64,000 nt of DNA from an uncultured Actinomycetes bacterium (GCA_963836365.1 CAWIJC010000002.1:617058-681057); one strand, 5' to 3'; positions 1 through 64,000 are shown, counted from the stretch's first letter. Notes: generated by a model not told the origin, from the letters alone. Made by a program: numbers and translations.

Positions 1-512
1 GGGCGAGGTCGTCTACCCCTTGCCGACCCGACCACAGGTGCTGCGTGACGGTGACGTGATCTGGGTCGACACCGGCATCAATCTGCACGGCTACGCATCT
101 GACTTCGGCGCCACGTGGATCGTCGGTGAGACGCCCGAGCATGCGCACGCGTGCAGTTCGCACAGTGGCGTGACGTCGTCGACCACGCGCTTACGGTCGT
201 GCGTCCGGGCGCGACGGCGGCCGATCTCGACGCGTGCGGCCGGCACAGCATCACGGCGCACTGCCCTGGTTGTCGTATTTCTACCTCGCACACGGGTGCG
301 GTACCGACAGCGCAGAGATGCCGTTCGTCGGCACCGACCTCGGCGACGACTTCGACGCGTCGCTCGTGATAGCGCCGGGCATGGTGCTCGTGCTCGAGCC
401 GGTGATCTGGGACGACGGCTACGCCGGTCACCGCTCCGAAGAGATCGTCGCCGTCACCGACGACGGATACACACGGCTGTCGTCCCGTGCCGAGCTCGAC
501 GAGTTCGCGTGA
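1..512 (+). pseudogene. M24 family metallopeptidase (Xaa-Pro aminopeptidase/creatinase-like), C-terminal portion entering from upstream of window; reading frame changes twice
   Basis: Frame 2 (1-150) reads DGDVIWVDTGINLHGYASDFGATWIVGETPEHAHA. Frame 1 (151-240) reads QFAQWRDVVDHALTVVRPGATAADLDA. Frame 3 (234-512) reads GMVLVLEPVIWDDGYAGHRSEEIVAVTDDGYTRLS. All are typical M24 catalytic-domain motifs; stop at 510-512. Confidence 0.55.
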
Positions 513-1526
513 GCGAGCGTCGGGAGCCGGAGCCGGAGCCGGAGCTGGAGCTGGCGCTCGACGTGATGGCGCGGCGCGGCATCGACGTGATGATGCTCGG
601 GCGCGAGGCGAACGCGCGCACCGTCGCGGGAACGACGCGCTTGTGGCTGGCGGGAACCCGCCCGTTCTCTCCCGGCTGCGTCGTCGTGCGCGACACGGGT
701 GCGGTGCACGTGTTGTCGAACAGCGACGACGCGGTGCCGGACGGCTTCCCCTTCGAGCGGCTGTTCGGCATCACGTGGAACCCGGCGAAGCTCGTCGCCG
801 CGCTCGCGTCGATTCCGGGCGTGCTCGACGCGCGCCGAATCGCAGTCGACGGCATGACGCCGATGATGCCGGCGCTGCTCGAGCAAGTCGCTCCCGGCGC
901 CGAGCTCGTCGATGCCGCGTGCGTGTTCGCGGAGCTGCGCGGCGACCGATCCCGCGCGCGCCGGCGGCGTGCGCGCCGCATCAGAGGTCGCATCGGCAGG
1001 ATTGCTCGCGATGGCCGATGCCCTACGCCCGGGGATACACCCGCGCACGTTGCGTGGCGCGTGCGCGGCGGCGTTCGCGATCTTCGGCGTGACCACGCCT
1101 GCGTTCGAAGGTGTCGCGTGCGCGCTCGGCGGCAGCGCCTCGACGTGGCTGCCGCCCGACCGTGTCTTCGTGGAGGACGATCGGGTCGTGTTGCGCGCCG
1201 GCGCGTTGCGCGACGGTTGGGAGGCGTCGTTCGCGCGCACCTACCGCGTCGGGCACCGCGCCTCTGCGGCGCTCGAACCGCCCCCGGGCTGGCACGCGCT
1301 CGTCGGCGCCTGCACGGCCGGCACGACCGCCGGTGCACTGCGGACGCGCGGCGCGCTCGTGCACGGCGTCGGGCGCGGCGTGGAACCGTGCGACGACGAC
1401 ACGGTGTTGACGCCCGGCATGACAATCGCCCTCGAGCTCGGCGGCCGCGACCGGGTGCACCAGGACATCGTCGAGATCGCGGGGTCGGGCACAGCTCACG
1501 CGCTACGCGTCGAGCCCCCGGGGTAG
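509..1526 (+). CDS. M24 family peptidase with creatinase-type N-terminal domain; one frameshift near 930-975
   Basis: GTG 509 overlaps the upstream stop. The N-terminal domain reads LDVMARRGIDVMMLGREANARTVAGTTRLWL...VLDARRIAVDGMTPMM. The C-terminal part is in frame 3 (912-1526): PGIHPRTLRGACAAAFAIFG...TVLTPGMTIALELGG. Confidence 0.6.
521..553 (+). repeat. hexanucleotide tandem repeat (GGAGCC/GGAGCT x5) encoding an (EP)n(EL)n tract at the peptidase N-terminus
   Basis: The repeat gagccggagccggagccggagctggagctgg is seen directly in the sequence. Confidence 0.7.
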
Positions 1527-3041
1527 CCACCACCACCGAAGTCCGCGTCGAGTGTGTCGTAGTCGGGGTCGGCACCGACTCGAGGAATTGCCTCGACGAA
1601 CACGATGTCGCGGGGCTTCTTGTACGACGCGATCCGCGCCTTGCAATGCGCGATGAGCTCGTCGACCGTCGCGGCACGGTCGTCACGCAGGACGACGACG
1701 GCCTTGACTGCCTGCACCCAGGTGTCGTCGGGTACACCGATCACCGCGCAGTCCGCGACCGCCGGATGCTGCTTGATGCAGTTCTCGACCTCGATCGGGT
1801 AGATGTTCTCCGCAGCCGACTTCAACATGCGCGTCTTCGGTCCGACGAAGGTGAACGATCCGTCGACTTCGAACCGGCCGAGGTCGTTCGTGTGGTGCCA
1901 GCCGTTCCGCGACCGGAACACGTTCAGCTCGGGCCGGTTCCAGTAGCCGCACATCACGGTCGTGCCACGCACTGCGATCTCGCCCACCTCGCCCGGATCG
2001 ACGTCGCGATCGCCCGGGTCGACCACGCGTACGTCGACGACCGGCGACGTGCGGCCGTGCAGGCCGATGGCGTCGGCACCGAGCAGGTTGAACGTCGCGA
2101 AGCCCATCACCTCACTCTGGCCGTACCCCCCTGCCCGCCGACCCCACGCGCTGTCGTCGCCCCGCACCCACGCGTCGAAGGTCGGGTTGCCGCGCTTCCC
2201 CCGCAACGACGACAAGTCGTAGCGTCCGTCCGCATTGGCGGCGACAATCGCGTCGACCATCGGGCCGACGACGAAGGCTCCAGTGCATCGATTGCGTTCG
2301 ATCGCGGCACACATCTCCGCACCGTCGGAACGGCGCACGAACACATTGGTGCCGCCGCTCACGAACGTCGAGAGGTTCGGCATGAACGTTCCGATGTGGA
2401 ACAGCGGGCCCGAGTTCAAGAACACGTAGCCGGCGTCAATCTCGGACCACGGCGCCATAAGCGCACCCTGCGCGATCAGCGCGCGAGACGGCAGCATCGC
2501 CGCGTTCGGGCGGCCGTCGAACGCGGCCGTGTAGATCAACAACAATGGTTCGGCGTCGTCGGCGTCAGCATCGGGATCGTCGATGTCGCGCCAGCACGCG
2601 TCCGACCCATGCCTCGTACTCGCCGTCGTCGTGCGCGATCCAGAGCGAATTCGTGTGCGTCGCGGCGGCACGCCCCGCGTGCACGGTTGCGTCGACCTCC
2701 TCGTGCTGCCACACGACGACACGTGGCTCGAGATCGTCGATGACGAACGCGAGTTCCTCGGGCTGCTGGCGCCAGTTCGCCGGGCAGAACAGCGCGCCGA
2801 GCTTGCAGCAGGCGAGCAGCAGTTCTTGGAGGCGAAACGAATTCTGTCCGAGCCACAACACACGATCGCCGTGACCGACGCCTTCGCCTCGCAAGGCGTG
2901 CGCGACGCGACTGGCGCGTTCGTTGGCGGCCCGCCACGTGAACGTCGTCTCGCCTTCGACGAGCGCAACGCCGTCGGGCCGTGAGCGCGCGTGACTGCGA
3001 AGCACGTCCGCCAGTGTCCGCCGTCCCGTACCGTTGCTCAT
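1496..3041 (-). CDS. AMP-dependent acyl-CoA synthetase/ligase (FadD-like); frameshift near 2570-2600
   Basis: The N-terminus (ORF 2565-3149, from MSNGTGRRTLADVLRSHARSRPDGVALVEGETTFTW) is the AMP-binding N-terminal region. The C-terminus (ORF 1496-2968) carries GYGQSE, GEIAVRGTTVMCGYWNRPE and KKPRDIVFVEAIPR motifs. Confidence 0.65.
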
Positions 3042-3114
3042 TCCGCTCCGCTCCCGACGTCCTCTCCACGACTCGCGCGGGCACTTCCCGAACGGTCGCG
3101 CCGCGCCTGGCTGC

Positions 3115-8474: not shown

Positions 8475-9274
8475 TTACGACTGAATTTGCCGCCGCCCGC
8501 GCTCGACGACCTTCAGCCGCCGCGCTTCGATCGACGCGGGGTCGAAGCCGGGCCCTTCCCACTCGCGGCTCACGCGCGACTCGATCTTCCAGCCTTCGTC
8601 GACCGTCGTGCCGGTGACCTCGTTGTACGTCTGGAGCATGCGCCGCACACCGGGCTGGTCGTTCGACACGATGTCGGCGGCGAGCGCCCGGCAGAACGGC
8701 AACAAGTCGTCGTGCGGGACCACCTCGTTCACCAGCCCCCATTCGAACGCGCGGCGCGCGTCGATGTAGTTGCCGGTCGCGCTCATCTGCTTCGCCCGCC
8801 CGACACCGATGCGTTGCGCGAGCAGCACTGTGAGTCCCCAGCCGGGCATGACCCCGACGCGCGAGTGCGTGTCGGAGAAGCGCGCTCGCTCCGACGCGAT
8901 CAGGAAGTCGCAGTTCAACGCGACCTCGAAGCCTCCGGTGACCGCAGCGCCGTTGATCGCGCCGATCAGCGGCTTCGTGTGCGGCGGCAGCGCGCCCGGA
9001 ACGACCCGCGCCCGTCTCCGACCTCGGCAAAACCCTCGCCCGGCTCGATCTGACCCGAGCCGAACTCCTTCAGGTCGACACCCGCGCAGAACGCCGGATC
9101 GGCGCCGGTGAGAATCATGACGTCGACGTTGTCGTCACCGTCGCCGCGCGAGATGGCCGCCGGCAGCGCGCGCCGCACGGCGCGGTTCAATGCATTCCGC
9201 TGCGCGGGCCGGTGCAGCGTGATGACGGCGACGCGATCGGCGACGTCGACCAGCACGACGTCGTCTTCAGACAT
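8475..9274 (-). CDS. enoyl-CoA hydratase/isomerase (crotonase family); frameshift near 8920-8990
   Basis: The N-terminal ORF 8966-9325 (MSEDDVVLVDVADRVAVITLHRPAQRNALN...ILTGADPAFCAGVDLKEF) and the C-terminal ORF 8475-8918 (ALNCDFLIASERARFSDTHSRVGVMPGWG...) are in different frames. Confidence 0.7.
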
Positions 9275-9391
9275 GACGGCACGATGATGCACGAGGGCGT
9301 CGCGGAGCGAGGAGCGCGAGCGCAACGACTGGCGGGAGCGACGAGCGTCCGCGAGGCCGGTATCCGGCCGCGCAGCGAGTGCGACTCGAAA

Positions 9392-10621
9392 TCATCGAAA
9401 GTCGAATGCGACTTTGATCGCGCCCGACTGCTCTTGCGTTGCGAGCGCGCCGAACGCGTCGCGCCAGTCGTCGAGCGCGAACGTGTGCGTGAGCATGCCG
9501 GTGAGGTCGACCCGCCCGTCGTGCACGAGATCGAGGTAGTGCGCGATGCCGTGCTGGCGCACGCCGTCGACCTCCTCGAACCCGAATGCGTTCGAACCGA
9601 CCATCGAGATCTCCTTGAAGTACAGCGGCGTGTCCTCCCACCACGTCGGACCGTGCACGCCCGCCTTCACGAGCGTGCCGCGCGCGCGGAGGACGCGCGT
9701 GCCGACCTCGAACGTCTCCCGCTTGCCGACCGTGTCGTACACGACGTCGATCGCGCCCGGAAACGCCATCGGCAGCCCGTCGCTGTCGCGCAACTTGCCG
9801 CCCGACCACGCGGTCGCTTCTTCGATCACGCGCAACGCGGGCTCGTGACCGATCACCGTCGCGCCGAGCTTCCGCGCGAGCTCGGCCTGCGTGTCGAAGC
9901 GCGCGACGACGAGCACTTCGACGTCGGGATAAAGCGCGCGCAGCACGGCGACCGCACACGTACCGAGCGCCCCGGCGCCGTACACCATCACCTTGGCGCC
10001 CGGGGGCGGCGGATGGCGCGTGACCGAGTGCATCGACACCGCGAACGGGTCGGCGAAGACGGCCAGCTCGTCGGCAACGTCGTCGGGAACCTTGAACAAC
10101 TGCGTGTCGTGCGCGGGCATGAGCTGCGCGTAGCCGCCGTTGACGTCGCGCGCGGTACCGATGTGGATCCCGGGCGGGATCGGCCCGACGTCGAACGACC
10201 AACACAAGCTGTAGTCGCCGTTCTCGCACGCCGGACACACCGGCGACACGCCGCGCGGCGCGCACGACAGCCACGGGTTCAACACGACGCGGTCGCCGAT
10301 CTCGAGCCCTTCGGCGTCGGGCCCGAGGGCGACGACATCCGCGACGACTTCGTGTCCCAGGACCTGGGGTAGAGAAAAAAATCCCTTCATCGGGTTGTCG
10401 GCGGACGCGACGTCTCCCCAATCCATGAAGACCTGCTTCGCATCCGACCCGCAAACGCCGGTGAGGCGGGGTCGCATCACGACCCAATCGGGTAACGGTG
10501 GTGTCGGTTCGTCGAGATCGACGAGCCGCATCGGCGTCTGCGCGAGGTTGCGCAGCAGCATGTTGTCGGTGTCAGGAACTGGATGAGATTCCGGCGCGAC
10601 GCCGTACAGCAGCGCTTTCAC
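9392..10621 (-). CDS. zinc-dependent alcohol dehydrogenase (MDR superfamily)
   Basis: GVCGSDAKQ...GHEVVADVVALG...CENGDYSLC...VMVYGAGALG are zinc-ADH motifs; 409 aa, intact. Confidence 0.8.
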   Translation of the reverse strand: MKALLYGVAPESHPVPDTDNMLLRNLAQTPMRLVDLDEPTPPLPDWVVMRPRLTGVCGSDAKQVFMDWGDVASADNPMKGFFSLPQVLGHEVVADVVALGPDAEGLEIGDRVVLNPWLSCAPRGVSPVCPACENGDYSLCWSFDVGPIPPGIHIGTARDVNGGYAQLMPAHDTQLFKVPDDVADELAVFADPFAVSMHSVTRHPPPPGAKVMVYGAGALGTCAVAVLRALYPDVEVLVVARFDTQAELARKLGATVIGHEPALRVIEEATAWSGGKLRDSDGLPMAFPGAIDVVYDTVGKRETFEVGTRVLRARGTLVKAGVHGPTWWEDTPLYFKEISMVGSNAFGFEEVDGVRQHGIAHYLDLVHDGRVDLTGMLTHTFALDDWRDAFGALATQEQSGAIKVAFDFR

Positions 10622-10667
10622 ACCGCGGAATCTACCGCGTTCCCGCCGGCTGCCTTCGGACCGGCCG

Positions 10668-11408
10668 TCAGGCCCGATCGCCCTGCACGCTGCGCAGATG
10701 CATCGGCCGGCGGTCGGCGCCGGGCCGCGCCTCGTCGCGCACGTCGTCGGGTTGCGCGAGGCAGAACCCGATCCCCCGCGACGTCAACAGGAACTTCGGT
10801 CGCGACGGCTCTTCTTCGATACGACTGCGGATCCGGCGAATGTGGGCCACGAGCCGCTCACCCGCGTCGGGTGGTTCGTTCGGCCAGATCGCCTTCTGGA
10901 GATCGACTTTCGACACGACGGCGCCCTCGGCGCGCACGAGCGTGACGAGAATGTCGAACTGTGTCTGTGTCAGCGAGCACAGCGAACCACGCCAGCGGGC
11001 TTCGCGCCGGGCGAGATCGAGCCGCAGCGGACCCCAGCTCAACACCTGCGCCAGACCACGCTCCCCACGGAGCGCGAGCAGCGTCAGCGCGCGGGAAAGC
11101 ACCTCGTCGGGCACGTCGGGCGGCACGATCGCGTGCACGTCGGGCGGCGCGAGCCGGTGCGGCTCGGTGACGAACACGCGAATCGTGTCCTGCAACGTGC
11201 CCGCCTGCTGCAGCATCCGCCCGTCGGGATCGATCGAATCGTCGGTCACCACGACTTCGGCAGTACGCGCGAAATCGATGATCTGGTCGCTGGTAAAAGC
11301 AAGCAAAGGCGCGAAACCCGCGTTCGCGAACAAGTTGGCCAGCGGCAACGGCTCCGCTACTGCGACCAAAACCCCGCGCGCTGAGCCCACTGCGCGAACC
11401 CGATCCAT
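10668..11408 (-). CDS. OmpR/PhoB-family winged-helix transcriptional regulator with an atypical (probably non-phosphorylatable) receiver-like N-terminal domain
   Basis: The C-terminal trans_reg_C domain reads LTQTQFDILVTLVRAEGAVVSKVDLQKAIWPNEPPDAGERLVAHIRRIRSRI...LLTSRGIGF. The N-terminal 120 aa are REC-like but lack the usual acidic pocket. Confidence 0.65.
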   Translation of the reverse strand: MDRVRAVGSARGVLVAVAEPLPLANLFANAGFAPLLAFTSDQIIDFARTAEVVVTDDSIDPDGRMLQQAGTLQDTIRVFVTEPHRLAPPDVHAIVPPDVPDEVLSRALTLLALRGERGLAQVLSWGPLRLDLARREARWRGSLCSLTQTQFDILVTLVRAEGAVVSKVDLQKAIWPNEPPDAGERLVAHIRRIRSRIEEEPSRPKFLLTSRGIGFCLAQPDDVRDEARPGADRRPMHLRSVQGDRA

Positions 11409-11641
11409 GTCCCCACTCCCGTCGCCCCCGGACAACACCCGACAGGTGCTCCCCCTACGCGCGCACACTAACGCGAAAACGCGCGGAATCCGATACCCCG
11501 TGTAGGACAACCGTCGCGATGCTGGCTCCCCTTTGTACTTCCGTTCCTTGCCGCGTTCTGTTTGTGTCTCCCTGCGCTCGATGAGCGCGCCGAGCGCCTG
11601 GCGGTCGGTGATTCGTGCACGAAGACAGGGAGGATGCCTCA

Positions 11642-12514
11642 GTGAAGGCAACGGGCAAGTGGAAGGCAACACTGGCGACGACGGTGGCGGCGGCCTCGTC
11701 GGTGGCGATGGCCACTGGGGCGTCGGCGAACAGCTCGAAGATCTGGAACGACGCGGATGTGCATGTTGATCAGCACAGCTCCGTGCAAACGGACCAGTTC
11801 GGGCTCTCCAACAGCGGCTTCAATCACGCGGGGTCGTTCGTTGCGGGCGTCAACTACAGCGACCAGCTCGCCGACGGCAGTGCCGGCGACGGCAACATCA
11901 GCAACTACGGGGCCAACGGCAACAACACCGCTGGCAACCTCGGCGCTCCGGCGACCAACGACAACACCGGTACGAACGACGGCGACTCCAGCGCCTCGGT
12001 GAAGACCGGCAAGGCGAAGGCCGACAACTACTCGGACACCAAGGTCAGCCAGAACAACGGCGGTGGTGCGGACGCCTACACGGGTGCCAAGGGTGCGACG
12101 ATCAGCGGTGGCGGTGGCATTTCCAACAACGCCGACCTCTCCGTCGACCAGGACTCGCACGTGCGTACGGAGCAAGCAGCGGTTGCGAACTCCGGTTTCA
12201 ACTCCGCAAAGTCGGGCGTGATCGGCGCGAACCTGAACGTTCAGAGCGCGTACGGCAACGCCAACGGCGGCGACATCAACAACAATGGCGCCGACGGTAC
12301 GAACACCGCAGGCAACTCTGCGGGTGCGGCGTCGAACACCAATGCCGGTTCCAACACCGGCAAGTCGTCGGCCTACGTGCAGACGGGTGACGCATCGGCG
12401 AGCAACTCGAGCAAGACGAACGTCTCGCAGAACAACTCCGGTTCCGCGAACGCTTCGACTGACGCCGAGGGCGCGACGATCAGCGGTTGGAACGACAACC
12501 ACCTGAACTGGTAA
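11642..12514 (+). CDS. secreted Asn/Gly/Ser/Ala/Thr/Asp-rich repeat protein (no anchor); paralogous to the downstream LPXTG protein
   Basis: GTG 11642 with RBS GGGAGGA at 11626-11632. Signal peptide KWKATLATTVAAASSVAMATGASA. Internal repeats with SNSGFN / TGDASASNSSKTNVSQNNSG motifs; low-complexity composition. Confidence 0.65.
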   Translation: MKATGKWKATLATTVAAASSVAMATGASANSSKIWNDADVHVDQHSSVQTDQFGLSNSGFNHAGSFVAGVNYSDQLADGSAGDGNISNYGANGNNTAGNLGAPATNDNTGTNDGDSSASVKTGKAKADNYSDTKVSQNNGGGADAYTGAKGATISGGGGISNNADLSVDQDSHVRTEQAAVANSGFNSAKSGVIGANLNVQSAYGNANGGDINNNGADGTNTAGNSAGAASNTNAGSNTGKSSAYVQTGDASASNSSKTNVSQNNSGSANASTDAEGATISGWNDNHLNW

Positions 12515-12525
12515 TCGTTGGGAAT

Positions 12526-12553
12526 CAGGGGAGGAGCTCTTGCTCCTCCCCTG
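12526..12553 (+). terminator. perfect hairpin CAGGGGAGGAGC-tctt-GCTCCTCCCCTG downstream of the secreted-protein gene (intrinsic-terminator-like, no U tract)
   Basis: 12-bp perfect stem with a 4-nt loop, seen in the sequence. Confidence 0.6.
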
Positions 12554-12653
12554 GTTGTCTTCGTAGAGTCGGGCGGCCACCCGCAGTCACGGAGAGGACG
12601 CGGGGGACGTTCGACGCACACCGTCGGTCGTCAACACTGAAGGAGCAGTAGTC

Positions 12654-14819
12654 GTGGTCGTGGCATCCGCGAAGCTCGGGCTTCGCATGCTGTTCGCAGC
12701 AACGCTCGTGTTCATCGCGTTGTTGCTGTTCGCGGGCCACGCCCACGCGGACGAAGCCGCCACCACGCCGGCACCCGAAACCACGACCGCGGTTGCACCC
12801 GACAACACTGCGACCGATCCGGCACCGGCGACGTCGACGCCGGCGACCGACAGCACCACCGCGCCGGCCGACACGGGAACGACGCCGCCGCCCACCGACA
12901 CCTCGACGCAGGCACCGGCGCCGCAAGACCAGAGCGCGATGCCCCCCACGCCGCCGCAGGCCGAGCCGACGCCGCCGACACCGGCCGGCGCGCCCGGGCC
13001 CACCCCCCCGAACAACACGAACGACCAGAACGCCGACGTCGGCACGACCGGCACCGGCGTCGCGAACACCGGCGGCAACGCGGCCGGCGCGCAGAGCAAC
13101 TCCGGCACGCAGACCAGTGGTACGCCCGGCGCGAACAACGGGTCGGCGACAGCAGGCACGTCGTCCGGCGACTCGTCCGCCGTCGGCACCAACAGCAACA
13201 GCACGATCGGTCAGCAGGCCCACGCCGAAGCGACCGGCTTGGGCACCGTCGACATCTTGCAGATCGCGCTCGTCGTCAACATCGGCGTCGCCAACTCGAA
13301 CACCGGCAGCAACGTCGTGGGTGCGGGCGGCGCGGGCACGTCGGGCATCGGCACGATCAAGTCGAGCATCAAATCCGGCAACGCGAGTGCGCTCGGCAAC
13401 AACTCCAAGACCGGTATCAAGCAGAGCGCGATCATCAAAAACGGTGAGCAGAGCAATCAGAAGGCCGTCGTCGTCAACGTCGGTATCGCGCTCGGCAACA
13501 GCGGTCTGAACATCACGATCGGCACGCTCGGCACCGACGGCCTGCCCGCGTCGACGCAGGCGGTCACGACCGGCGCGTCGAACGGCCAGATCTACACCGG
13601 CGACGCGAGCGCGATCGGCGACCGCTCGAATTCTGCGATCAATCAGTCGGCGAACGGCACGGCGAGCGGCATCGCCACCTTGGTGATCGACCAGCGGGCC
13701 GTGATCGTGAACTTCGGGACCGCGCTCGCGAACTCCGGCGGCAACGTGGCGCTCGCCTCGTTCGACCCGAGCAACCTGACGAGCGAGGAAGCCGAGATCG
13801 TCTACGCGGTGCTCAGCGCGTTGGCGCCGCTGTTCGGCCCGCCCCAGACCGGCGTCCAGAACTCGCTCGGCGGGACGACCGCGAGCATCGGCACCGGTAA
13901 CGCGAGCGCGATCGGCAACTCGTCGGCGACCGAGATCGATCAGAACGTCGAAGGCAGCGTGCACGGCGACGGGAACGCGTCGGCGACGCAAACCGCGGTC
14001 GTCGGCAACCTCGGTGTTGCGCTCGCGAACACCGGCTTCAACGGTGCGTTGGCAGGCGTCACGCTCGACGGGCTCACGCAAGCGCATCCCGAGCTCGTGG
14101 GTGCCGGCGACGCGCTCACGCAATTCCTCGCGCTGCTGACCAACCTCTCGTGGCTCGACAGCGCGAACCCGTTCGCACAGTTCGCGCAGTCGATCGACAT
14201 CGGCGGCGTCACGCTCGACCTGGGCGGCACGCTGAGCGGTTCCGAGTTCTTGCTCGGTTGGGACAGTGCGATCGCCCCCGACGGCGGCCCGCTTCCCGGT
14301 GGCGTGCGCGTGCGTCAGATCAGCGGCGTGTTGAACATCGGCTTCAGCACGTCCGACTCGGGCCACAACACGGTCGTCGCCATCGTGACCGGCTCGAACG
14401 GGAGCGGCGGCGACGTGAAATCGGCCAAGAGCGCGACGCAGGTGAAGAGCGGCTCGCCCGACGTGTTGGCCCAGGTGTTCTCGGGCAACGCGCTCGCGAT
14501 CGGCAACAACGCCGTCGTGACTGTGTGCCAGACGTTCCACGACACCGTGGACTGCTTCACCCCGAAGCCCACGCACCACCCGACGCCGCATCCGAAGCCC
14601 GCTCCGGCACCGCGGCCCCATACTCCTTCGGAGCCCCCGGTCGTCGTTGTGTCGGCGAACGAGGAATTGCCGCCCGCCTCGCCGACCGCCGCGACGACCT
14701 CGGGCTCCGAGGAGCTGCCGTTCACGGGCTCCGACCCGCAGGCATTGATCGCGATTGCCGGCACGATGCTCGCCGCGGGCGCGGCGCTCTCACGCCGCAG
14801 GCGCGCCGAACGCGTCTGA
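12654..14819 (+). CDS. LPXTG-anchored cell-surface repeat protein (sortase substrate): signal peptide, Pro/Thr-rich stalk, about 60-aa Asn/Gly/Ser-rich repeats, LPFTG + TM + RRRRAERV tail
   Basis: N-terminus MVVASAKLGLRMLFAATLVFIALLLFAGHAHA. Repeats of type TG[DN]ASAIGN.S...QS...Q.AVVVN.G.ALANSG.N. The C-terminus EELPFTGSDPQALIAIAGTMLAAGAALSRRRRAERV is a classic cell-wall sorting signal (LPFTG at 14715-14729). Confidence 0.75.
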   Translation: MVVASAKLGLRMLFAATLVFIALLLFAGHAHADEAATTPAPETTTAVAPDNTATDPAPATSTPATDSTTAPADTGTTPPPTDTSTQAPAPQDQSAMPPTPPQAEPTPPTPAGAPGPTPPNNTNDQNADVGTTGTGVANTGGNAAGAQSNSGTQTSGTPGANNGSATAGTSSGDSSAVGTNSNSTIGQQAHAEATGLGTVDILQIALVVNIGVANSNTGSNVVGAGGAGTSGIGTIKSSIKSGNASALGNNSKTGIKQSAIIKNGEQSNQKAVVVNVGIALGNSGLNITIGTLGTDGLPASTQAVTTGASNGQIYTGDASAIGDRSNSAINQSANGTASGIATLVIDQRAVIVNFGTALANSGGNVALASFDPSNLTSEEAEIVYAVLSALAPLFGPPQTGVQNSLGGTTASIGTGNASAIGNSSATEIDQNVEGSVHGDGNASATQTAVVGNLGVALANTGFNGALAGVTLDGLTQAHPELVGAGDALTQFLALLTNLSWLDSANPFAQFAQSIDIGGVTLDLGGTLSGSEFLLGWDSAIAPDGGPLPGGVRVRQISGVLNIGFSTSDSGHNTVVAIVTGSNGSGGDVKSAKSATQVKSGSPDVLAQVFSGNALAIGNNAVVTVCQTFHDTVDCFTPKPTHHPTPHPKPAPAPRPHTPSEPPVVVVSANEELPPASPTAATTSGSEELPFTGSDPQALIAIAGTMLAAGAALSRRRRAERV

Positions 14820-14821
14820 TC

Positions 14822-14849
14822 GTCGAAGGGGGGCATTCCCCCCTTCGAC
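14822..14849. terminator. perfect hairpin GTCGAAGGGGGG-catt-CCCCCCTTCGAC between convergent genes
   Basis: 12-bp perfect stem, seen in the sequence. Confidence 0.6.
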
Positions 14850-14875
14850 GCTACCCCCGCAGTTGCGCGTCGCTG

Positions 14876-15694: not shown

Positions 15695-15725
15695 GCCTTC
15701 CGCTCCGGCCTCGGTTGTGCTCGGC

Positions 15726-16754: not shown

Positions 16755-16756
16755 CA

Positions 16757-17471: not shown

Positions 17472-17498
17472 CCGACCGCTCGGATGCTTTCCCGCGCC

Positions 17499-19934
<2,436 letters not shown>

Positions 19935-21990: not shown

Positions 21991-22020
21991 CGTGCCAACT
22001 CGTTCGGAGCCGGCGGCCGC

Positions 22021-45225: not shown

Positions 45226-45263
45226 GCGGATGCGGGCCACGCCCCGAGCGATAGCGTGGCCGG

Positions 45264-48991: not shown

Positions 48992-49067
48992 CGACGACAG
49001 TGCGGGCGGGAGCTCGTCGTCGCGGAACGGCGCTCTTCTTGCGCAGGTTACGAGAGGACATCGAAGA

Positions 49068-50866
49068 TCACCTCCTCCTCGCCATCTTCGGCTCGGCCGG
49101 AGGCGAAGCGCTGCGCCTGCAAGCTCGAACATCGTGCGGTAACGACCGCCGAGCTGCCATCAGCTCGTCGTGCGTGCCGAGCTCGATGACACGACCGTGC
49201 TCGAGCACGCAGATGCGGTCGGCGTGCCGCACCGTCGAGAACCGGTGGGAGATCAAGATCGTCGTCGTCTCGCCGCGTCGCGGCAAGGATGCGGTCGAAG
49301 ATCTCGGCCTCCCCGCGCACGTCGAGCTGTGCGGTCGGCTCGTCGAGCAGCACGAGACCCGCACCCAGCTCGACCGCGCACAACGCGCGCGGCGAGAGCG
49401 ACGCGTTGCCACTGCCCGCCGGAAAGGTCGGTGCCGCCCTCGTAGCCCTTCGACAACGGCGTGTCGAGCGACGCGAGGTCGCGCGCGCCCGCCGCGCCGA
49501 GCGCGACGAGCACGACTTCGTCGGGCGCGCCACGCGGCGCGACGTTGTCGCGCAACGGCCGTTCGAACTTGATGAAGTCCTGGAACACCGCGGTGATGCG
49601 CGCGCGCCATCCGTCGATGTCGAAGTCGTGTAGGTCGACACCGTCGACCTCGATCGAGCCGGACTGCGGGTCGTAGAGGCGGCACAAGAGCTTCGCGAGC
49701 GTCGTCTTGCCGGCGCCGTTCTGTCCGACGATCGCCAGCGACGAACCGGCGGGAATGGTGAGGTCGAGATGCTCGAGCACCGGTGCTTCGTGCGTTGCCG
49801 GGTATGCGAACGTCACGTCGCGCAGACGGATCTCCCGGGTGGGCATTCCCGTCGCCGCCCGCTCGCCGGCGGGCAGCGCGCCGAGCACGCTCGTCTTGGG
49901 TTTGATGCGCAGCACGGCCGCCACCGGTGCGGCGGCGCCGTCGAGCGCCCAGTTCAGACCGCCGAACGCGATCATCGACGTGCCGATCGCCGCCTGTGCG
50001 AAGACGACAGCCGCGCCGAGCCCGATGCGGCCGTCGATCGCGGCCGCCGCGATCGACCAGAACACGAGCACGTTCGCGGCGAGCACAAGGAGCAGGCTGC
50101 CGAGCACCGAGCGCTCGCGCATGCGCGTCGCCTGATATTGCAGCGTGTGCAGCAGCGTGCGCCGCTCGACGAAGCGGTCGATCGTCCACGGCCCGAGCCC
50201 GAACATCCGCAGCTCTTTGCTCGCGGGCGGATCGACCGCGAGCCGGTAGGCGTAGTCGGCATCGCGTTGCGCGGCACGTACCTCTTCGGTGTTGCGGTCG
50301 CGCCAGATGGCGCTTTCCTTCAGCAGCCAGTGCGTCGCAAGCCACGCGCCGGCGAGCGGAAGCGGCGCCCACCACGCGTACCCGAACAGGACCGCCGCGG
50401 ACGCGAGACCGCCGATCATCTGCGCGAGCCCGTCGGCGATGAAGTCGAGCGAGATCGACAGCGGCGGGCCGGTCATGCCGAGATCGAAGTCGCGCGCAAC
50501 CTGCAGGTCGCTCGCGAGCTCCGGGTCTTCGAGATGACCCATGCCGGGCGGCTCGACGCACGCGTCGGTGAGCTGGTCGTAGAGCCACGCCGCGGTGCGG
50601 TCGCCGAGGTTGCCGCTGATCGCCGTGTGGATCGGGTTGAGCACCTGCAGCAGCACGAAGACGATGCCGACGGCGGTGAGCGGGAGCGCGAGCGCGTCGC
50701 CGTGCTGCACCGCGCCGACGAGCACACCCATCGCGATCGCGAAGGCCGCCGGCAGCACTCCACGCAACACGAGGACCAGCCACCAGGCGACGGCCAACGG
50801 GAGGTCGGCCTTGTGCAGTACGCCGAAGAACTTCAATTCCTGGCGCTCTCGGAGACGAGCGATCAT
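49068..50866 (-). CDS. ABC exporter half-transporter (TMD-NBD); C-terminal frameshift
   Basis: TM region followed by [26 protein letters not shown] and [10 protein letters not shown]. Confidence 0.65.
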
Positions 50867-50985
50867 GCAGCAAGTCTGCTGCAGCCTCACCCCCCGCGTC
50901 TTGTACGAATGCGAACTACCGCTCGGTCCGGTGACGAGGCCCGCGTGAACAGGCCGAACGCTGCGGGGGCGCCGGGGGCCTGGTG

Positions 50986-52871
50986 TCAGGCGACGTCCAC
51001 GTCGACGTCGACGATCGGTGCGACGAATTGCGAGTTGTAGAGCCGCGAGTAGGGGCCGTCGTGCGTCAGAAGCTCGTTGTGCGATCCCTGCTCGACGATC
51101 TGGCCGTTCTCCATCACGAGGATTATGTCGGCGCCGCGAATCGTCGACAACCGGTGCGCGATCACGAAGCTCGTGCGCTCGTGACGGAGCGCGTTCATCG
51201 CCTCCTGGATGAGCACCTCGGTGCGCGTGTCGACCGAGCTCGTCGCTTCGTCGAGGATGAGGATCCCCGGATCGGCGAGGAACGCTCGTGCAATTGTCAA
51301 AAGCTGCTTCTGGCCCGCGCTGATGTTGTCGCCTTCCTCGTTGATCATCGTGTCGTAGCCGTCGGGAAGCGAGTGCACGAAGCGGTCGACGTACGTGGCG
51401 CGCGCGGCTTCGAGGATCCGGTCCTCGGTCGCGTCAGGGTCGCCGTAGGCGATGTTGTCGCGGATCGTGCCGCCGAACAGCCACGTGTCCTGCAGCACCA
51501 TGCCGACCGACGATCGCAGCTCCGAGCGCGGCATCGAAGAGATGTCGCGGCCGTCGAGCGTGATCATGCCGCCGTTCAGCTCGTAGAAACGCATGATGAG
51601 GTTCACGAGCGTCGTCTTGCCGGCACCGGTCGGGCCGACGATCGCGATCGTCTGGCCCGGTTCGGCAACGAGCGACAGGTGCTCGATCAGCGGCCGGTCG
51701 GGGTCGTACGCGAACGTGACGTCGCGGAACTCCACCCGGCCGATCACTGGTGCGGGATTCATGGTCGCTGCGGCCTCGGCACTCTGCTCGTCGGCGTCGA
51801 GGAACTCGACGACTCGCTCGAACGATGCGATCCCCGACTGGAAGACATTCATCATCGAGGCGAGCTGCGTGAGCGGCATCGAGAAGTTCCGGGAGTACTG
51901 GATGAACGCCTGGATGTCGCCGACCGTGATCGCGCCGTTCGCGACGCGTAACCCACCGACGACGGCGACGATCACATACTGGATGTTGCCCATGAACATC
52001 GTGAAGGGCTGCATCACGCTCGACATGAACTGGGCGCCGAATGACGACTCGTAGAGCTCGTCGTTGGTCTCGCGGAAGCGCCGCTCGACCTCGCGCTGGC
52101 GGCCGAACGCCTTCACGACGGCGTGACCGGTGAAGGTCTCTTCGATCTGCGCGTTCAGGATGCCCGTGCTCTTCCATTGCGAGATGAATCGCGGCCGCTG
52201 CCCTTCGCGCGAGGACGCGCATGCCGTAGACCGACACCGGCACAGTCGTCAGCGCAACGAGCGCGAGCAGCGGCGAGATCGTGAACATCATGATCGCGAC
52301 TCCCAGCAGCAGCAGCACCGACGTGAGCATCTGGCTGAGCGTCTGTTGCAGGCTCTGCGCGACGTTGTCGATGTCGTTGGTGACGCGGCTGAGCAGATCG
52401 CCGCGTTGCTGCTTGTCGATGTAGCTGAGCGGAAGGACGTTGACCTTGTCCTCGACGTCGGATCGCAGCTTGTACATCAACCGCTGGATGACCCCGGCGA
52501 GCGTGTACGCGGCGACGATCTGCAGCAGCGACGAGCCGACGTAGAGCGCGATCGCCTCGAGCAGCACGTGGTGGAGGGCGCCGAAGTCGATCCCGCGATG
52601 GCTGATCACGCCGCGGACGATGATGTCGGTGCCATGCCCGAGCACACGCGGGCCGTATACGTTGAGCACGACGCTCGCGATCGCGACGACGAACACGAAC
52701 ACGAGCACGATCCACATCGGGCCGAGCATGCGCGAGGCGTGCGAGGGCGCTCTTGAAGTCCTTCGACCGCTCGCCCGGAACGCCCGCGGAGTTCCATCGA
52801 CCGGTCGGGCGTGTCTCGGGGGCGGCGAGATCGAGTTCCTGGTCCTCGTACTCGTCGTCGATGATCGTCAC
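50986..52871 (-). CDS. ABC exporter half-transporter (TMD-NBD); frameshift(s) in TMD
   Basis: [32 protein letters not shown] and [12 protein letters not shown]; TMD in ORF 51434-52729. Confidence 0.65.
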
Positions 52872-54601
52872 GCCGCGCTCTTCTCGCCGATCTGCGACTG
52901 GACGATCTCGGCATATGTCGGGCAGTCACACAACAGCTCGTCGTGCGTACCGTGCCCGATGATGGCGCCGTCTTCGAGGACGATGATGTTGTCGGCGGTT
53001 GAAATCGTCGAGACACGCTGCGCAACGATGACGACCGCTGCATCCTTCGTGTACGGGCCGAGCGTGGCGCGCAGCCGCGCGTCGGTTGCCAGGTCGAGCG
53101 CCGAGAACGAGTCGTCGAACACGTAGATGTCGGGCTTGCGGATCAGCGCCCGCGCGATAGACAGACGCTGGCGCTGGCCGCCCGAGACGTTCGTGCCGCC
53201 CTGCTCCACGCGGGCGTGCAGCCCGCCGGGCATCGCGCGCACGAAGTCGCTCGCCTGCGCGACGTCGAGTGCGGCCCACATCTCCTCCTCGGTCGCCTCC
53301 ACCTTGCCGAACTGCAAGTTGCTCGCGACCGTGCCCGAGAAGAGATACGGCCGCTGCGGCACCATTCCGATCGTGCTCCACAGCACGTCGGGATCGAGCT
53401 CGCGCACGTTCACGTCGCCGACGAACACCGAGCCTTCGGTGCTGTCGAACAGGCGCGCGACCAGGTTCACGAGCGTGGTCTTGCCCGCGCCGGTGCTGCC
53501 GACGATCGCCGTCGTCTGTCCGGGCCGCGTGACGAACGAGATGTCGGTGAGCACGGCGTGCTCGGCGCCGGGATAGCGGAAGCCCACGTCGCGGAGCTCG
53601 AGAGCGCCGTGCGTCCTCACGTCGCGCACCGGATCTTCGGGCGGCGCGACCGTCGGGTCGGTGTCGAGGACTTCCTGGATGCGGTCAGCCGAGACCGACG
53701 CGCGGGGGATCATCGAGATCATGAACGTTGCCATGACCACCGACATGAGGATCTGCACGAGGTACGTGAGGTATGCGACCAACGTGCCGACCTGGATCTC
53801 GCCCGAGTTCACGCGGCTCGCACCGAGCCAGATGACGGCGACGCTCGACGCGTTGATCATCAGGTTCACGGTCGGGAACATCGACGACATCAGTCGCCCG
53901 GCGCGCAGCGACACCTCGGTCAGCTCGCGGTTCGCGGCACCGAAGCGGCGCGCTTCCTGCGGTTCGCGTACGAACGCGCGCACGACTCGTACGCCGGTGA
54001 TCTGCTCGCGCAGCACCCGGTTCACCTGGTCGATGCGCTCTTGCATCAACCGGAAGGCGGGCACCATCTGCGAGACGATCAGCCCGAGCACGACCCCCGC
54101 GAACGGCATCGCGAACACGAGCACCACGGACAGCCCGACGTCCTGCCGCAGCGCCATGATCACGCCGACGACCATCGTGATCGGTGCCGCAATCGCCATC
54201 GTGCAGCCCATCACGACGAGCATCTGCACTTGCTGCACGTCGTTGGTGATGCGCGTGATCAGCGACGGCGCGCCGAAGGCACCGACTTCCCGGGCGGAGA
54301 AGTCGGTGACCTGGTGGAAGAGATTCTTTCGTAGGTCGCGCCCGAAGCTCATCGCGACCTTGCCGCCGTAATAGACCGCCGCGACCGCGAACACAATCTG
54401 GACGAGCGCGAAGAGGAGCATGATCGCGCCCCACGTATAGATGTAGCCGATGTTGCCGGGCAGCACGCCGTTGTCGATGATGCGGGCGTTGATCGTCGGC
54501 AGCGTCAGCGCGGCCGACGTCTGCACGGTCTGCAATGCGACGATCAGCAGCAGTGTGTTGCGGTACGGACCGAGATGCGAGCGCAGCAACCGCCTCAGCA
54601 C
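52868..54601 (-). CDS. ABC exporter half-transporter (TMD-NBD), intact
   Basis: TMD followed by [29 protein letters not shown] and IYVFDDSFSALD. Confidence 0.75.
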   Translation of the reverse strand: MLRRLLRSHLGPYRNTLLLIVALQTVQTSAALTLPTINARIIDNGVLPGNIGYIYTWGAIMLLFALVQIVFAVAAVYYGGKVAMSFGRDLRKNLFHQVTDFSAREVGAFGAPSLITRITNDVQQVQMLVVMGCTMAIAAPITMVVGVIMALRQDVGLSVVLVFAMPFAGVVLGLIVSQMVPAFRLMQERIDQVNRVLREQITGVRVVRAFVREPQEARRFGAANRELTEVSLRAGRLMSSMFPTVNLMINASSVAVIWLGASRVNSGEIQVGTLVAYLTYLVQILMSVVMATFMISMIPRASVSADRIQEVLDTDPTVAPPEDPVRDVRTHGALELRDVGFRYPGAEHAVLTDISFVTRPGQTTAIVGSTGAGKTTLVNLVARLFDSTEGSVFVGDVNVRELDPDVLWSTIGMVPQRPYLFSGTVASNLQFGKVEATEEEMWAALDVAQASDFVRAMPGGLHARVEQGGTNVSGGQRQRLSIARALIRKPDIYVFDDSFSALDLATDARLRATLGPYTKDAAVVIVAQRVSTISTADNIIVLEDGAIIGHGTHDELLCDCPTYAEIVQSQIGEKSAA

Positions 54602-59941: not shown

Positions 59942-60779
59942 ATGACCGCAACTCTCACCACACCCGTGATCTCCACCAGGCCGATGCCGAAGCTCTGGGC
60001 CAAGCTCCCGATCCGGACCGGCAACATCATCCAACTCAGCAGCATCGCCGCCGGGGCCGCACTGCTGGTTGCGGCGGCGCACCTGCACGCCGCCAGTGGC
60101 ATACGGATCGGCCTGCTCGCCGTCGGATGGCTCGCCATCTACTTGTGCAGCCACGCCATCGCCCACGTCGCAGTCGGCCACGCCGTCGGTATCCGCTTCC
60201 GCGCCTACGGCGTACGCGGTACCGACCATCCCGAGAACTACCCGCCCGGAGTACGCCAGGTCATGAGCGCGCTGCCGATGTGGTCCGCGCTCACCGACAA
60301 GGACTCGATGCGCCAAGCCAAGCCCTGGGCCAAAGCCGCCATGTTTTCCGCCGGCGAAACATCCACCACCATCGTGTCGATCACGTCCGCGGCGTACGCC
60401 GCCCACGCGGGTATCCCGGGCGGTCACGCACTGCTGACCGGCAGCGTCTTGTGGGGACTCGCAGCCACCATCACCGTCGCGGTCGTCGCCAAAGGCGACT
60501 ACACCAAAGCCATGCGCGCCCTCGGATGGCGCAAGCCCACCTCGGTCAAGACCGCCGAGTTCTCCCACGAGCGGACCACCAGACCGAACCGGCGAGGCCC
60601 ACCGCGGCAACGAACTCCGCAACGCCATCATCGGCTGGACCCTCGTCAACCTCGCACTCGTGGCCCTGTGGGCCGTCAACGGTGCCGGCTCGCCGTGGTT
60701 CGCGTTCGTCACCGTCCCCTCCGTCATCGGCGTGAGCAGCTGGGCCCGCCAGGGTCGCCGAGAGGCAACAGTCCGATGA
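59942..60779 (+). CDS. integral membrane protein; frameshift near 60580; stop overlaps next start (ATGA)
   Basis: TM-rich ORF 59942 onward. Its C-terminus lies in a second frame: ...WTLVNLALVALWAVNGAGSPWFAFVTVPSVIGVSSWARQGRREATVR. Confidence 0.45.
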
Positions 60780-61348: not shown

Positions 61349-61452
61349 GCTCTTCTGACCAGCACGTATGGACTGCAACGGACGGGGTGGACGCGGTGGA
61401 CGGCGGGTTGCCCATCCACTTGCCCATCCTTCGCGCGACGCAGACTGTTCGC

Positions 61453-62614
61453 ATGCAGGGATCGATACGGCAGCGCGGACAACAGTCGTGGGAGCTGCGC
61501 GTCCACGCCGGCCGCGACGCGCTGACGGGTCGCAAGACGTACGTGCAACGAACCGTGCGCGGCACGAAGCGCGACGCGGCGAACGCACTGGCGCGGCTCG
61601 TCACATCGGTGAACGACGGCGCGCACTCGACGAAGAAGAGCGGCACCGTCGGCGAACTGCTCGAGCAGTGGTTCAGCCACAACGAGGCCGACTGGTCCCC
61701 CACCGTCGTTCACAACTACCGGCGGATCATCGACCGGCACCTTGTTCCGCGCTTCGGTCGCACGCCGCTGCGGCGGTTGACAACGGCCGACATCGATCGG
61801 TTCTACGCGCAGCTGCGCAAGCGCGGTGGTGCCAATGGTCGGCCCTTGTCGCCCGCGTCGGTGAAGCGCGTGCACGCGGTGTTGCGGCGCGCGCTCGCGC
61901 AAGCCGTCAAGTGGGGTGACCTGACGATCAATCCCGCGGTGAACGCGTCGCCGCCCGCGCGAACCGCGCCACGAGGTGGCCCCGCCCGATCCCGCCGATG
62001 TGGCGCGCTTGATCGCGCACGCCGATGAGACCAATGCACCGGTCGGCTGCTTCCTTCGGCTTGCTGCGACATCTGGCGCGCGTCGCGGTGAGCTGTGCGC
62101 GTTGCGCTGGAAGCACGTCGATCTCGACAAGGGCGCGCTCCTCATCCAGCGATCGATCGTCGAGAACGGAAAGGGTGAACTGGTCGAGAAGGACACGAAG
62201 ACGCACGCCGCGCGCCGGCTTCGCCTCGACGCGGGAACAGTCGAGCGCTTGCGAGAGCACCGCGCCGAGCGCGAGGGTACGGCACCGAGCTCCGCCGGAT
62301 CGTGCACGCCGACGACTTCGTGTTCTCGCACGATCCCGCCGGCACGGACGCCCTGGCGTCCGGGATACGTCACGCTCGCGTTCTGCCGACTGCGCGATGA
62401 CGTCGATCTCGGCGGAGTTCGGCTCCACGATCTCCGTCACTTCGCCGCGACGATTCTTCTCTCCGGCGGCAAAGACGTGAAGACGGTGAGCGGCCGCCTC
62501 GGCCACGCGAACGCGGCGACGACCCTCGGCGTGTACGCCCACTTCGTCGAAGCAGCCGACGCCGACGCAGCCGACCACCTCGCATCAATTCTCGACACTG
62601 CCAGCTCGTCATGA
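61453..62614 (+). pseudogene. tyrosine-type site-specific recombinase (phage integrase); two frame changes (about 61975, about 62290)
   Basis: N-terminal SAM-like MQGSIRQRGQQSWELRVHAGRDALTGRKTYVQRTVRGTKRDAANALARL. Catalytic R (ATSGARRGELCALRW), HxxR (LHDLRHFAAT) and Y (LGVYAHF) lie in shifted frames. Confidence 0.7.
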
Positions 62615-62734
62615 CACACGTCCGCCGAGCCGCTACGCGACAGACTGCAGCATCACTTCAGATCGCGCGAGCGACCGGGGTAAGCGTCACACCCTCTTCG
62701 TACGATGAAGCGCCTATAGACCGGGAGAGCGACC

Positions 62735-63487
62735 ATGGGTGACCACAGCGCGATCGAGTGGACTGAAGCAACCTGGAACCCAACAACGGGCTGCGATAAG
62801 ACGTCGCCCGGGTGCGACAACTGCTACGCGCTTACCCTCGCCAAAGCGACTCAAGGCGATGCGTCAACCAAAGTACCAGCGCGACGGTGATTCCCGGACA
62901 AGCGGGCCCGGCTTCGCCTTGAGTATCCATCCCGACACGCTCGACATCCCGCGATCGTGGAACGCACCGCGCGTGATCTTCGTGAACTCCATGAGCGACT
63001 TGTTTCACCCGAGCGTTCCACTTGGCTACATCCGCGATGTCTTCGACGTCATCGAGGACACGCCTCAACACACCTACCAAGTGCTCACCAAACGTTCGAA
63101 GCGGCTCGCGGAGCTCTCTGATCGGCTTCGCTGGCCCGCCAACCTATGGATGGGCGTCAGCGTCGAAAGCATGCGGTACTCGTTCCGAATCGACCACCTT
63201 CGCGACGTAGATCCTGCAGTGCGTTTCGTCAGCGCCGAGCCTCTGCTTGCCCCGCTACCGACGCTCGACCTCACCGGTATCCATTGGCTGATCGCCGGTG
63301 GCGAGAGCGGTCCCAACGCTCGACCTATGGATCGGCTCGTGGGTGGCGAGCCTACGCGACCAATGCGAGCGCTGCCGGCGTTCCCTTCTTCTTCAAGCAG
63401 TGGGGTGGACGCACGCCAAAGGCCGGCGGCCGAGAACTCGACGGCCAACTCCACGACGGGATGCCGCTCGTCCTCGCGATCGCGTGA
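62735..63487 (+). CDS. DUF5131 (phage Gp37/Gp68 family) protein with three-Cys motif; two frameshifts
   Basis: [32 protein letters not shown] (C-x5-C-x2-C), then [69 protein letters not shown] and [10 protein letters not shown]. Confidence 0.7.
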
Positions 63488-63488
63488 T

Positions 63489-64000
63489 GTGACCCGCTAC
63501 TGGGGCTTCTGGACCCGCGGCAAGCTCGAGTTGTTGCGCCGATACCTCGATGCCTTCACGACGACGACCAAGAACAAGGCAACCGAACGGCTCTACCTCG
63601 ACATCTTCGGCGGCCAACCCGAGAACCGCGATCGCCTCACCTACGATCTGCTCGACGGTTCGGCGCGGATCGCGCTGTCGATCGACGATCCGCCGTTCAC
63701 ACGGCTCCGATTCCTGGAGCTCGATCCCTACGCAACACGGCTCAGAACCGCTCTGGAGCAGGACTTCTCCGGTCGAGACTTTGAAGTGATCGCCGGCGAT
63801 TGCAACACGACGATTCACACGACGCTGCAGGAGCTCGCGCATCTCAGCTGGGCACCGACGTTCGCGTTCGTCGATCCGAACGGCCCCGACACTCATTGGT
63901 CCAGCATCGAGGCACTCGCGAACTTCAAACGCAAGGACCGACCGAAGGCAGAGAGTCTGGCTTCTACTCGCCGCGGGAATGTTCATCCGGATGCTCCCGA
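63489..64000 (+). CDS. three-Cys-motif partner protein TcmP (TIGR04474-like), 5-prime partial at window end
   Basis: GTG immediately after the DUF5131 stop. VTRYWGFWTRGKLELLRRYLDAFTTTTKNKATERLYLDIFGGQPEN...FVDPNGPDTHW. Confidence 0.55.
   Translation, partial: MTRYWGFWTRGKLELLRRYLDAFTTTTKNKATERLYLDIFGGQPENRDRLTYDLLDGSARIALSIDDPPFTRLRFLELDPYATRLRTALEQDFSGRDFEVIAGDCNTTIHTTLQELAHLSWAPTFAFVDPNGPDTHWSSIEALANFKRKDRPKAESLASTRRGNVHPDAP

Follow-up and report, generated by a model that had tools for sequence, protein, structure and literature searches.

Patches of single-base insertions, very probably consensus errors, split about a third of the genes in a 64-kb segment of an uncultured actinomycete genome

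Interrupted reading frames in large numbers are known from settings that differ widely in what the interruptions mean. Mycobacterium leprae is an example of a pseudogene-rich reductive genome, and real pseudogenes also show nonsense codons. Programmed +1 frameshifting of the prfB type takes place at single sites that are conserved in orthologues and tied to a slippery or stop context. In metagenome-assembled genomes (MAGs) built from Nanopore reads only, indel errors of the kind exposed by IDEEL-type tests for truncated proteins split a gene into adjacent open reading frames (ORFs), with the protein conserved and short-read relatives unaffected; in the textbook case the errors are deletions that hit homopolymer runs throughout the genome. 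Nanopore bins below ~40-fold depth require short-read polishing (PMC9262707), and frameshift errors are commoner in soil assemblies from Nanopore reads than in those from HiFi reads (PMC13087279). Many interrupted frames, mostly in accessory and catabolic genes, are likewise found in reductive, pseudogene-rich genomes such as those of the Candidatus Burkholderia leaf-nodule symbionts (PMC6054270). Here we describe a 64,000-nucleotide stretch from an uncultured Actinomycetes bacterium (GCA_963836365.1, CAWIJC010000002.1:617058-681057; the whole stretch is hereafter called the window) in which about a third of the protein genes are split between frames, and argue from sequence comparison that these frame changes are very probably consensus errors of a long-read metagenome assembly and not mutations of the organism.

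A preliminary description of the window had reported internal frame changes in about 20 of roughly 65 genes, and this estimate is borne out by our count of ~58 frame-changing events in 22-23 of ~64 protein genes. Events were located by a codon-usage hidden-state path across six frames, by a purpose-written frameshift-aware protein-to-DNA aligner queried with orthologues taken from related genomes at syntenic loci, and by Pfam searches on stitched or corrected proteins. The references comprised short-read assemblies (L081 and L082, in both of which every gene is intact, L004 and L007), Nanopore-only assemblies (L002, L005 and L006), soil-metagenome contigs (L083-L089) and, for DUF5131, 80 viral contigs; L082 and L163 have only a TetR-ABC-ABC block in common with the window, and served as references for that block alone. 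With the frameshift-aware aligner, independent references place the junctions at the same sites, at every one of which the orthologues in the short-read assemblies L081, L082, L004 and L007, in the soil-metagenome contigs and in the viral contigs (DUF5131) are uninterrupted. As a control, corrected window proteins were aligned to orthologous loci of the short-read and viral collections, where 0 events were found in 15.2 kb; the same 14 genes carry 43 events in the window. The split genes, with inserted bases given as +1 and missing bases as -1, are as follows.

1..509, plus strand: M24 peptidase no. 1 (C-terminal part; the gene extends past the window start), events at ~148 (-1), 229 (+1) and 251 (+1); L007 and L005 orthologues; corrected protein matches Peptidase_M24 68-208/208 in one stretch
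509..1514, plus strand: M24/creatinase-like peptidase no. 2, one event at ~937, net +1 (+1 or -2); L002 and L007 orthologues; corrected protein is Creatinase_N plus Peptidase_M24
1499..2978, minus strand: FadD-type AMP-binding ligase no. 1, one +1 at ~2588; frame path from -f3 to -f2; stitched AMP-binding 9-384/384 spans the junction in a single stretch
8478..9268, minus strand: enoyl-CoA hydratase, one -1 at 8996, the same with four independent orthologues (L002, L005, L006, L007); corrected ECH_1 5-223/251
28844..29602, plus strand: SDR, events at 28982, 29163 and 29242 (+1), 29410 (-1) and 29443 (+1); L081 and L006 orthologues, single extra bases in the nucleotide alignment; corrected adh_short_C2 3-235/236
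29673..30889, plus strand: cytochrome P450 a, five +1 at 30027, 30124, 30164, 30573 and 30802; corrected protein 404 amino acids (aa) against 404 aa in the L081 orthologue, 80% identity, zero stops
30889..31324, plus strand: SnoaL-like protein, one +1 at 31207; L081 orthologue; corrected SnoaL_2 1-102/102
31389..31767, plus strand: EncFtn (encapsulated ferritin), one +1 between ~31713 and 31740
31764..32562, plus strand: encapsulin shell protein, one +1 at 32406; L081 orthologue; corrected Linocin_M18 1-253/253
32616..32901, plus strand: small gene that we take to be DUF4031-like from its motif, an assignment that Pfam did not confirm; one +1 near 32650 (f3 to f1) by six-frame reading, N-terminal VILVDRARW carrying on as ...CRFAHLVSDTSYDELHAF in the next frame
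32944..34000, minus strand: D12-class N6-adenine DNA methyltransferase (Dam-like), events at 33787 (+1), 33751 (-1) and 33229 (+1); L081 orthologue, 339 aa against 339 aa; corrected MethyltransfD12 20-253/253
34318..35528, minus strand: cytochrome P450 b, two +1 at 34703 and 34390; L081 orthologue
37255..38446, minus strand: Amidohydro_2 protein, one +1 at 38143; L081 orthologue, 87% identity
38455..39019, minus strand: TetR regulator, one +1 at 38827; L081 orthologue
43808..45231, minus strand: FadD-type ligase no. 3, two +1 at 44256 and 44219; L081 orthologue; corrected AMP-binding 3-384/384
45999..46320, minus strand: RsbW-like HATPase_c_2 protein, one +1 at ~46149; L081 orthologue; stitched HATPase_c_2 8-110/127 in one stretch
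47229..49027, minus strand: ABC exporter A, 14 inserted bases at 48808, 48438, 48341, 48331, 48294, 48278, 48130, 48039, 47828, 47785, 47754, 47658 and 47611 (two); five independent soil-metagenome orthologues concur; corrected ABC_tran 1-137/137
49051..50896, minus strand: ABC exporter B, four +1 at 49390, 49272, 49154 and 49123; six orthologues concur
50995..52900, minus strand: ABC exporter 2, events at 52734 (net +1) and 52198 (+1); L082 orthologue; corrected ABC_membrane 2-274/274; its partner exporter, 52871-54604, is intact
59942..60779, plus strand: membrane protein with C-terminal segment resembling two transmembrane helices (2TM), one +1 near 60580
61378..62611, plus strand: tyrosine integrase, events at ~61959 (+1), 62275 (-1) and 62365 (+1) by frame path; stitched Phage_integrase 6-167/172 in one stretch over two junctions, plus a SAM-like domain
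62735..63484, plus strand: DUF5131 protein, three +1 at 62843, ~63336 and ~63370, shared by the best 12 of the 80 viral-contig references; ~68% identity, zero stops; Pfam matches the N- and C-terminal pieces
63486..64000, plus strand: gene that we label TcmP-like by eye, without a family search; possible +1 at ~63954, a weak call by frame path at the window edge

Most of the families that had been listed as frame-split are recovered here, including both P450s, the three ABC exporters, the integrase, DUF5131, encapsulin, DUF4031, TetR and RsbW, as well as two M24 peptidases, the enoyl-CoA hydratase, one SDR, SnoaL, the Dam-like methyltransferase and one Amidohydro_2 protein. The earlier list went astray in counting three broken FadD ligases, of which only two are broken (FadD no. 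2, 27127-28542, is intact), and in missing EncFtn; its split membrane protein does hold one inserted base, but the ORF at 59942-61063 is itself open throughout and also contains a natural gene boundary. The long genes named as intact (GyrA, GyrB, PAS-GGDEF-EAL and the "LPXTG" repeat protein) are indeed free of events and stops.

Since the window is 64-70% G+C throughout and 68% overall, long ORFs occur in all six frames and raw ORF lists are uninformative. Screens of raw ORFs and of G+C at third codon positions were abandoned as too noisy at this composition, the off-frame ORFs of relatives giving matches too. Several junctions of the codon path were also discarded, as homology identified them as ordinary gene boundaries or noise (24590, between MaoC and SDR; 3546, 5939, 6574, 7861, 28535, 43810, 54604 and 60733; and an antisense excursion at 12758-13205). 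Where stop-to-stop reference ORFs were used, apparent events at their very N-termini were attributed to alignment through non-coding sequence and dropped (among them 28595 and 28815, those at the gyrB N-terminus and, in exporter A, 49032-49123 and 49070). Pfam found no match for ORFs at 32.4-33.2, 46.5-47.1 and 57.1-57.8 kb.

The events are strikingly uniform in type: 53 consist of one extra base and five of one missing base (binomial p = 3.5e-11). Two of the 53 (937 and 52734) could be two-base deletions instead. More generally, the alignment moves by exactly one residue at each event, and corrected lengths match those of the orthologues (251/252, 404/404, 339/339 and 403/402), which together indicate +1 insertions and not -2 deletions; consistent with this, single extra bases stand between aligned stretches in the nucleotide alignment to L081. 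Of the five deletions, three have an insertion 30-90 nucleotides (nt) away (29410/29443, 33751/33787 and 62275/62365).

The events are also strongly clustered along the contig (index of dispersion 4.6, p = 2e-16). The densest patch, at 47.6-49.4 kb, holds 18 events (10/kb) and crosses the boundary between exporters A and B, and a second, at 28.9-34.8 kb, holds 19 (3.2/kb). All four events of exporter B fall within its last 340 nt, adjoining exporter A, and the other 1.5 kb is free of them; as the densest cluster takes in all of exporter A and only this end of exporter B, event density tracks position and not gene. At the other extreme is a 20-kb stretch with no events, a gap that has a probability of 1.4e-8 at a uniform event rate:

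9000..28900, no strand assigned: event-free stretch of 20 kb with ~16 intact genes, among them an alcohol dehydrogenase, the repeat protein ("LPXTG"), GyrA, GyrB, PAS-GGDEF-EAL, MaoC, an SDR, an amidohydrolase and FadD no. 2

Alignments of this stretch to L004, L005, L006, L007 and L081 gave zero events and zero stops, and its genes have full Pfam architectures.

The deposited sequence itself contains the frame changes, and the window is a faithful copy of it. For two intact window proteins there are database proteins with 100% identity, both encoded on a single 1,203,248-bp contig (NCBI, ENA), and by exact sequence look-up the same contig also holds broken products, namely a 420-aa read-through P450 (P0241), a 407-aa EncFtn-encapsulin "fusion" (P0242) and a 373-aa membrane ORF. 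The GyrA-like protein has its nearest relative, at 85% amino-acid identity, in an uncultured actinomycete genome of the Microflora Danica project, and the remaining relatives are Acidimicrobiia-type MAGs. Microflora Danica genomes were assembled with metaFlye and one Medaka round, without short reads (PMC12313526), and a second megabase contig with the source labels of the window bears the Flye-style name contig_56821. Contig size, source labels and relatives suggest a Nanopore-only, Flye/Medaka-type MAG as the source. A plasmid origin was considered and rejected, as megablast of 24 kb against PLSDB returned short gyrA-level matches only.

Comparison with related genomes, which the preliminary description had proposed as a means of telling error from decay, finds the orthologues intact in short-read assemblies and sister Nanopore-only genomes broken in a similar manner. 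When intact window proteins were aligned to eight closely related loci, L005 had four +1 breaks, two of them in gyrB (8041 and 8501), and L006 had one, both being Nanopore-only Microflora Danica genomes; the short-read loci L001, L003, L004, L007 and L008 had no +1 break in ~30 kb, apart from the gyrB N-terminus, where the apparent event in L004, L007 and L006 was judged an artefact of the N-terminal extension of the window query. In the full set of 80 related loci, L005 and L042 (8043-8552), both from Microflora Danica, have a split gyrB, as does the short-read L010 (7226-7783). In L163, a long-read genome of this clade, a sulfatase is split into 171 + 310 aa (21101-21734); the megabase contig that shares the source labels of the window carries a split sulfatase.

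Once corrected, the underlying genes are predicted to be intact and under normal purifying selection. No corrected gene contains an in-frame stop, and corrected proteins match their orthologues in length and give full-length, single-stretch Pfam matches. Measured against orthologues, the ratio of nonsynonymous to synonymous substitution (dN/dS) comes to 0.173 across 12 broken genes and to 0.132 across seven intact neighbours in the window, with dS of ~0.7 in both, so that this check, also foreseen in the preliminary description, gives no signal of decay; amino-acid identity to L081 is roughly 0.82 for broken and 0.81 for intact genes (hand-averaged). Exporter A, in spite of its 14 insertions, keeps 254 of 261 columns that are invariant in 48 orthologues. 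By our own coordinate mapping, 4-5 of the seven deviating columns adjoin insertion sites, where the placement by the aligner is inexact, and for the reference sequences the corresponding figure reaches as much as 4.5%.

These data bear directly on the foremost alternative, genuine pseudogenisation, in which the frameshifts would be fixed in the organism within a decaying accessory or catabolic region. Such a reading is very unlikely, though it is the best placed of the alternatives: the broken genes are mostly accessory (ligases, P450s, exporters and mobile-element genes), gyrase and the 20-kb block are intact, and the window does contain a real sulfatase fragment beside a possible transposase remnant as well as an integrative element at a tRNA. 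Indels, however, arise ~10x less often than substitutions (PMC6054270), so that in any gene left to drift until it held 14 indels, substitutions should abound, stops included. There are zero nonsense codons among the 58 events (P(0) <=0.003 even if nonsense were only 1/10 as frequent as frameshifts), and dN/dS shows no rise towards 1. Real pseudogenes of high-GC Burkholderia hold 300 insertions and 396 deletions over a broad range of sizes, a ratio of 0.76 (PMC6054270); the ratio in the window is 53:5, and the deletion excess, the many indel sizes and the relaxed selection of those pseudogene-rich genomes are all absent from it. Moreover, clusters of events cross gene boundaries and strike only part of exporter B, and the error-free block holds the same dispensable classes of gene (alcohol dehydrogenase, SDR, amidohydrolase, FadD ligase) as the error-dense blocks. 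Of the two readings that the preliminary description had left side by side, long-read indel error is thus favoured by insertion bias, lack of nonsense codons, low dN/dS, boundary-crossing clusters and intact orthologues, and pseudogenisation of the frame-changed genes is not upheld.

A second alternative retains consensus error and assigns it to the classical cause, the miscounting of bases in G/C runs, which is where the errors had been expected from the outset. The genome is 68% G+C, homopolymer error is well documented as a general phenomenon in Nanopore assemblies (PMC9262707), and the deletion at 29410 does turn CCC into CC. As the main cause of the events it is nonetheless refuted, for the longest run within 4 nt averages 2.23 at events and 2.24 at random positions; runs of at least 4 occur at 3 of 47 sites, against an expectation of 5.8% (about 2.7 sites); no event lies at any run of at least 5, and none of the ten runs of at least 6 in the window is a frameshift site. 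The events are mostly insertions, not deletions, and occur in mixed contexts at the codon level, as in GTG[C]TCG, ACG[T]GCG and ATG[C]CCG in exporter A. The window accordingly differs from described Nanopore-only MAG errors in its one-base insertions, in their position outside homopolymers and in their concentration in patches of up to 10/kb.

Base modification offers a third possibility, that miscalls were induced at a methylation motif, for example at GATC through the D12-class methyltransferase encoded in the window. The presence of this gene and a mild enrichment of CGCG near insertions speak for it: of 43 insertion sites, 24 have CGCG within 8 nt, compared with 12.4 expected (p = 2e-4 uncorrected, with ~96-136 4-mers tested). 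This excess is marginal, in that it barely survives correction for multiple testing and could reflect G/C insertions in G+C-rich sequence, and a k-mer search around insertions found no shared context beyond it. The distance to the nearest GATC is the same at events as at random (medians of 30.5 and 34.5 nt, p = 0.27), and a motif effect should not spare the 20-kb block, given 625 GATC sites window-wide. We therefore regard modification as a very improbable source, and give as little credence to the idea that the extra bases are real, either because patches of an Acidimicrobiia genome undergo context-independent, insertion-biased mutation or because the cell decodes +1 shifts; if they were, dozens of the organism's genes would be interrupted and yet perfectly conserved in all other respects. 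Biological recoding by programmed +1 frameshifting or transcript slippage, with which the window shares the +1 direction of nearly all events and the functional appearance of the corrected genes, is hardly credible, because there are up to 14 sites per gene without a common sequence context, orthologues (those of the closest relative, L006, included) have no frameshift at these sites, and sister long-read assemblies have different +1 sites.

If consensus error is the cause, single extra bases (53 of the 58 events) would have entered the consensus in certain patches of the contig, and these patches would correspond to stretches with poorly supported consensus. Collapsed strain variants may be responsible, a single-nucleotide polymorphism (SNP) between two strains leading to both alleles being written in succession; this idea agrees with errors that are almost all insertions, lie outside homopolymers and occur in patches. 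At 47828, for instance, ACG[T]GCG in the window stands opposite TCC or CGC in relatives. We judge this likelier than plain low depth, which fits poorly because raw-read-like sequence would carry deletions too.

Several observations weigh against consensus error as the full explanation. Firstly, the sites were called by sequence comparison, and the sequencing platform is deduced from contig size, source labels and relatives. Secondly, insertions outside homopolymers are not the textbook Nanopore pattern; the gyrB of the short-read L010, which lies in two overlapping frames, indicates that such breaks are not exclusive to Nanopore assemblies. Thirdly, an error-free gyrase block next to error-dense accessory blocks would also be expected from selection on essential genes. 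Additionally, a few single events could be real mutations of the strain, such as the deletions (-1) at 8996 and 29410, of which only the latter is seen at the nucleotide level, as a CCC run shortened to CC, and two true gene remnants near 57 kb attest to some real decay in the window.

The value of recognising consensus errors, a familiar sort of artefact whose signature here is unusual, lies in what they invalidate. In the window, neither ORF lengths and gene counts nor seeming fusions and pseudogenes can be relied on, and the automated annotation of the public 1.2-Mb contig already includes chimeric products. Frameshift errors in long-read soil genomes need not lie in homopolymers, and because these sites do not, a homopolymer check used alone would wrongly suggest real decay.

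The encapsulin "fusion", whose interpretation was said beforehand to hinge on the choice between error and decay, illustrates the point. In L081, EncFtn (120 aa) and encapsulin (267 aa) are separate genes with a 4-base overlap. In the window, the corrected tail of EncFtn in frame f1 reads PGDLRKEPPR and is followed by a TGA that overlaps the encapsulin ATG at 31764 (ATGA overlap), and stand-alone EncFtn homologues (the 120-aa L081 protein and the 122-aa P0243) carry an almost identical peptide at their C-termini. We take the C-terminal GDLRKEPPR to be a cargo-targeting peptide. The 407-aa ORF (P0242) arises because one base is inserted near 31713-31740 and frame f3 happens to be open for 50 nt; read in this way, the fusion is a product of a single inserted base upstream of a normal stop/start overlap. 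The open 373-aa ORF at 59942-61063 similarly resolves into two genes. The membrane protein that comes first ends in frame f3 at TGA 60777-60779, which overlaps the ATG at 60776 (ATGA) of a second gene:

60776-61063, plus strand: separate 95-aa 2TM gene, start ATG 60776

Between 60581 and 60733, frame f2 reads as Arg/Pro-rich out-of-frame sequence and f3 as a transmembrane segment.

The remnants near 57 kb are a different type of lesion from the frame changes, and are probably genuine truncations that result from rearrangement:

56881-57188: sulfatase N-terminal fragment, Pfam positions 1-66/301
57189-57326: 46-aa piece resembling a transposase C-terminus, a label that we assign by eye and that Pfam did not confirm

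The right end of the window (61277-64000) resembles an integrative or prophage-like element with a tRNA as its insertion site. It consists of the tRNA gene, the integrase, DUF5131 and the TcmP-like gene, and its G+C is lower, at about 64%:

61277-61350: tRNA-Arg(CCT), directly before the tyrosine integrase

Gene content varies between the window and its relatives at several places. Within the event-free stretch, a minus-strand gene of ~1 kb (15738-16757), which we call beta-lactamase-like by eye and without a family search, is present in the window and in L006; L002, L004 and L007 lack it, and there the flanking genes adjoin each other. The syntenic locus of L081 has an extra alcohol dehydrogenase (12942-14024) and an extra SDR (15330-16076), both lacking in the window, which has the DUF4031-like gene and an Hsp20-like ORF in their places. 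Finally, a segment of ~110 nt (11506-11620), which either opens the repeat-protein gene (11528-12511) or precedes it, is highly conserved with L006 at the protein level; it has one extra base in the window at ~11613, matches no Rfam family, and may be coding sequence or a conserved leader.

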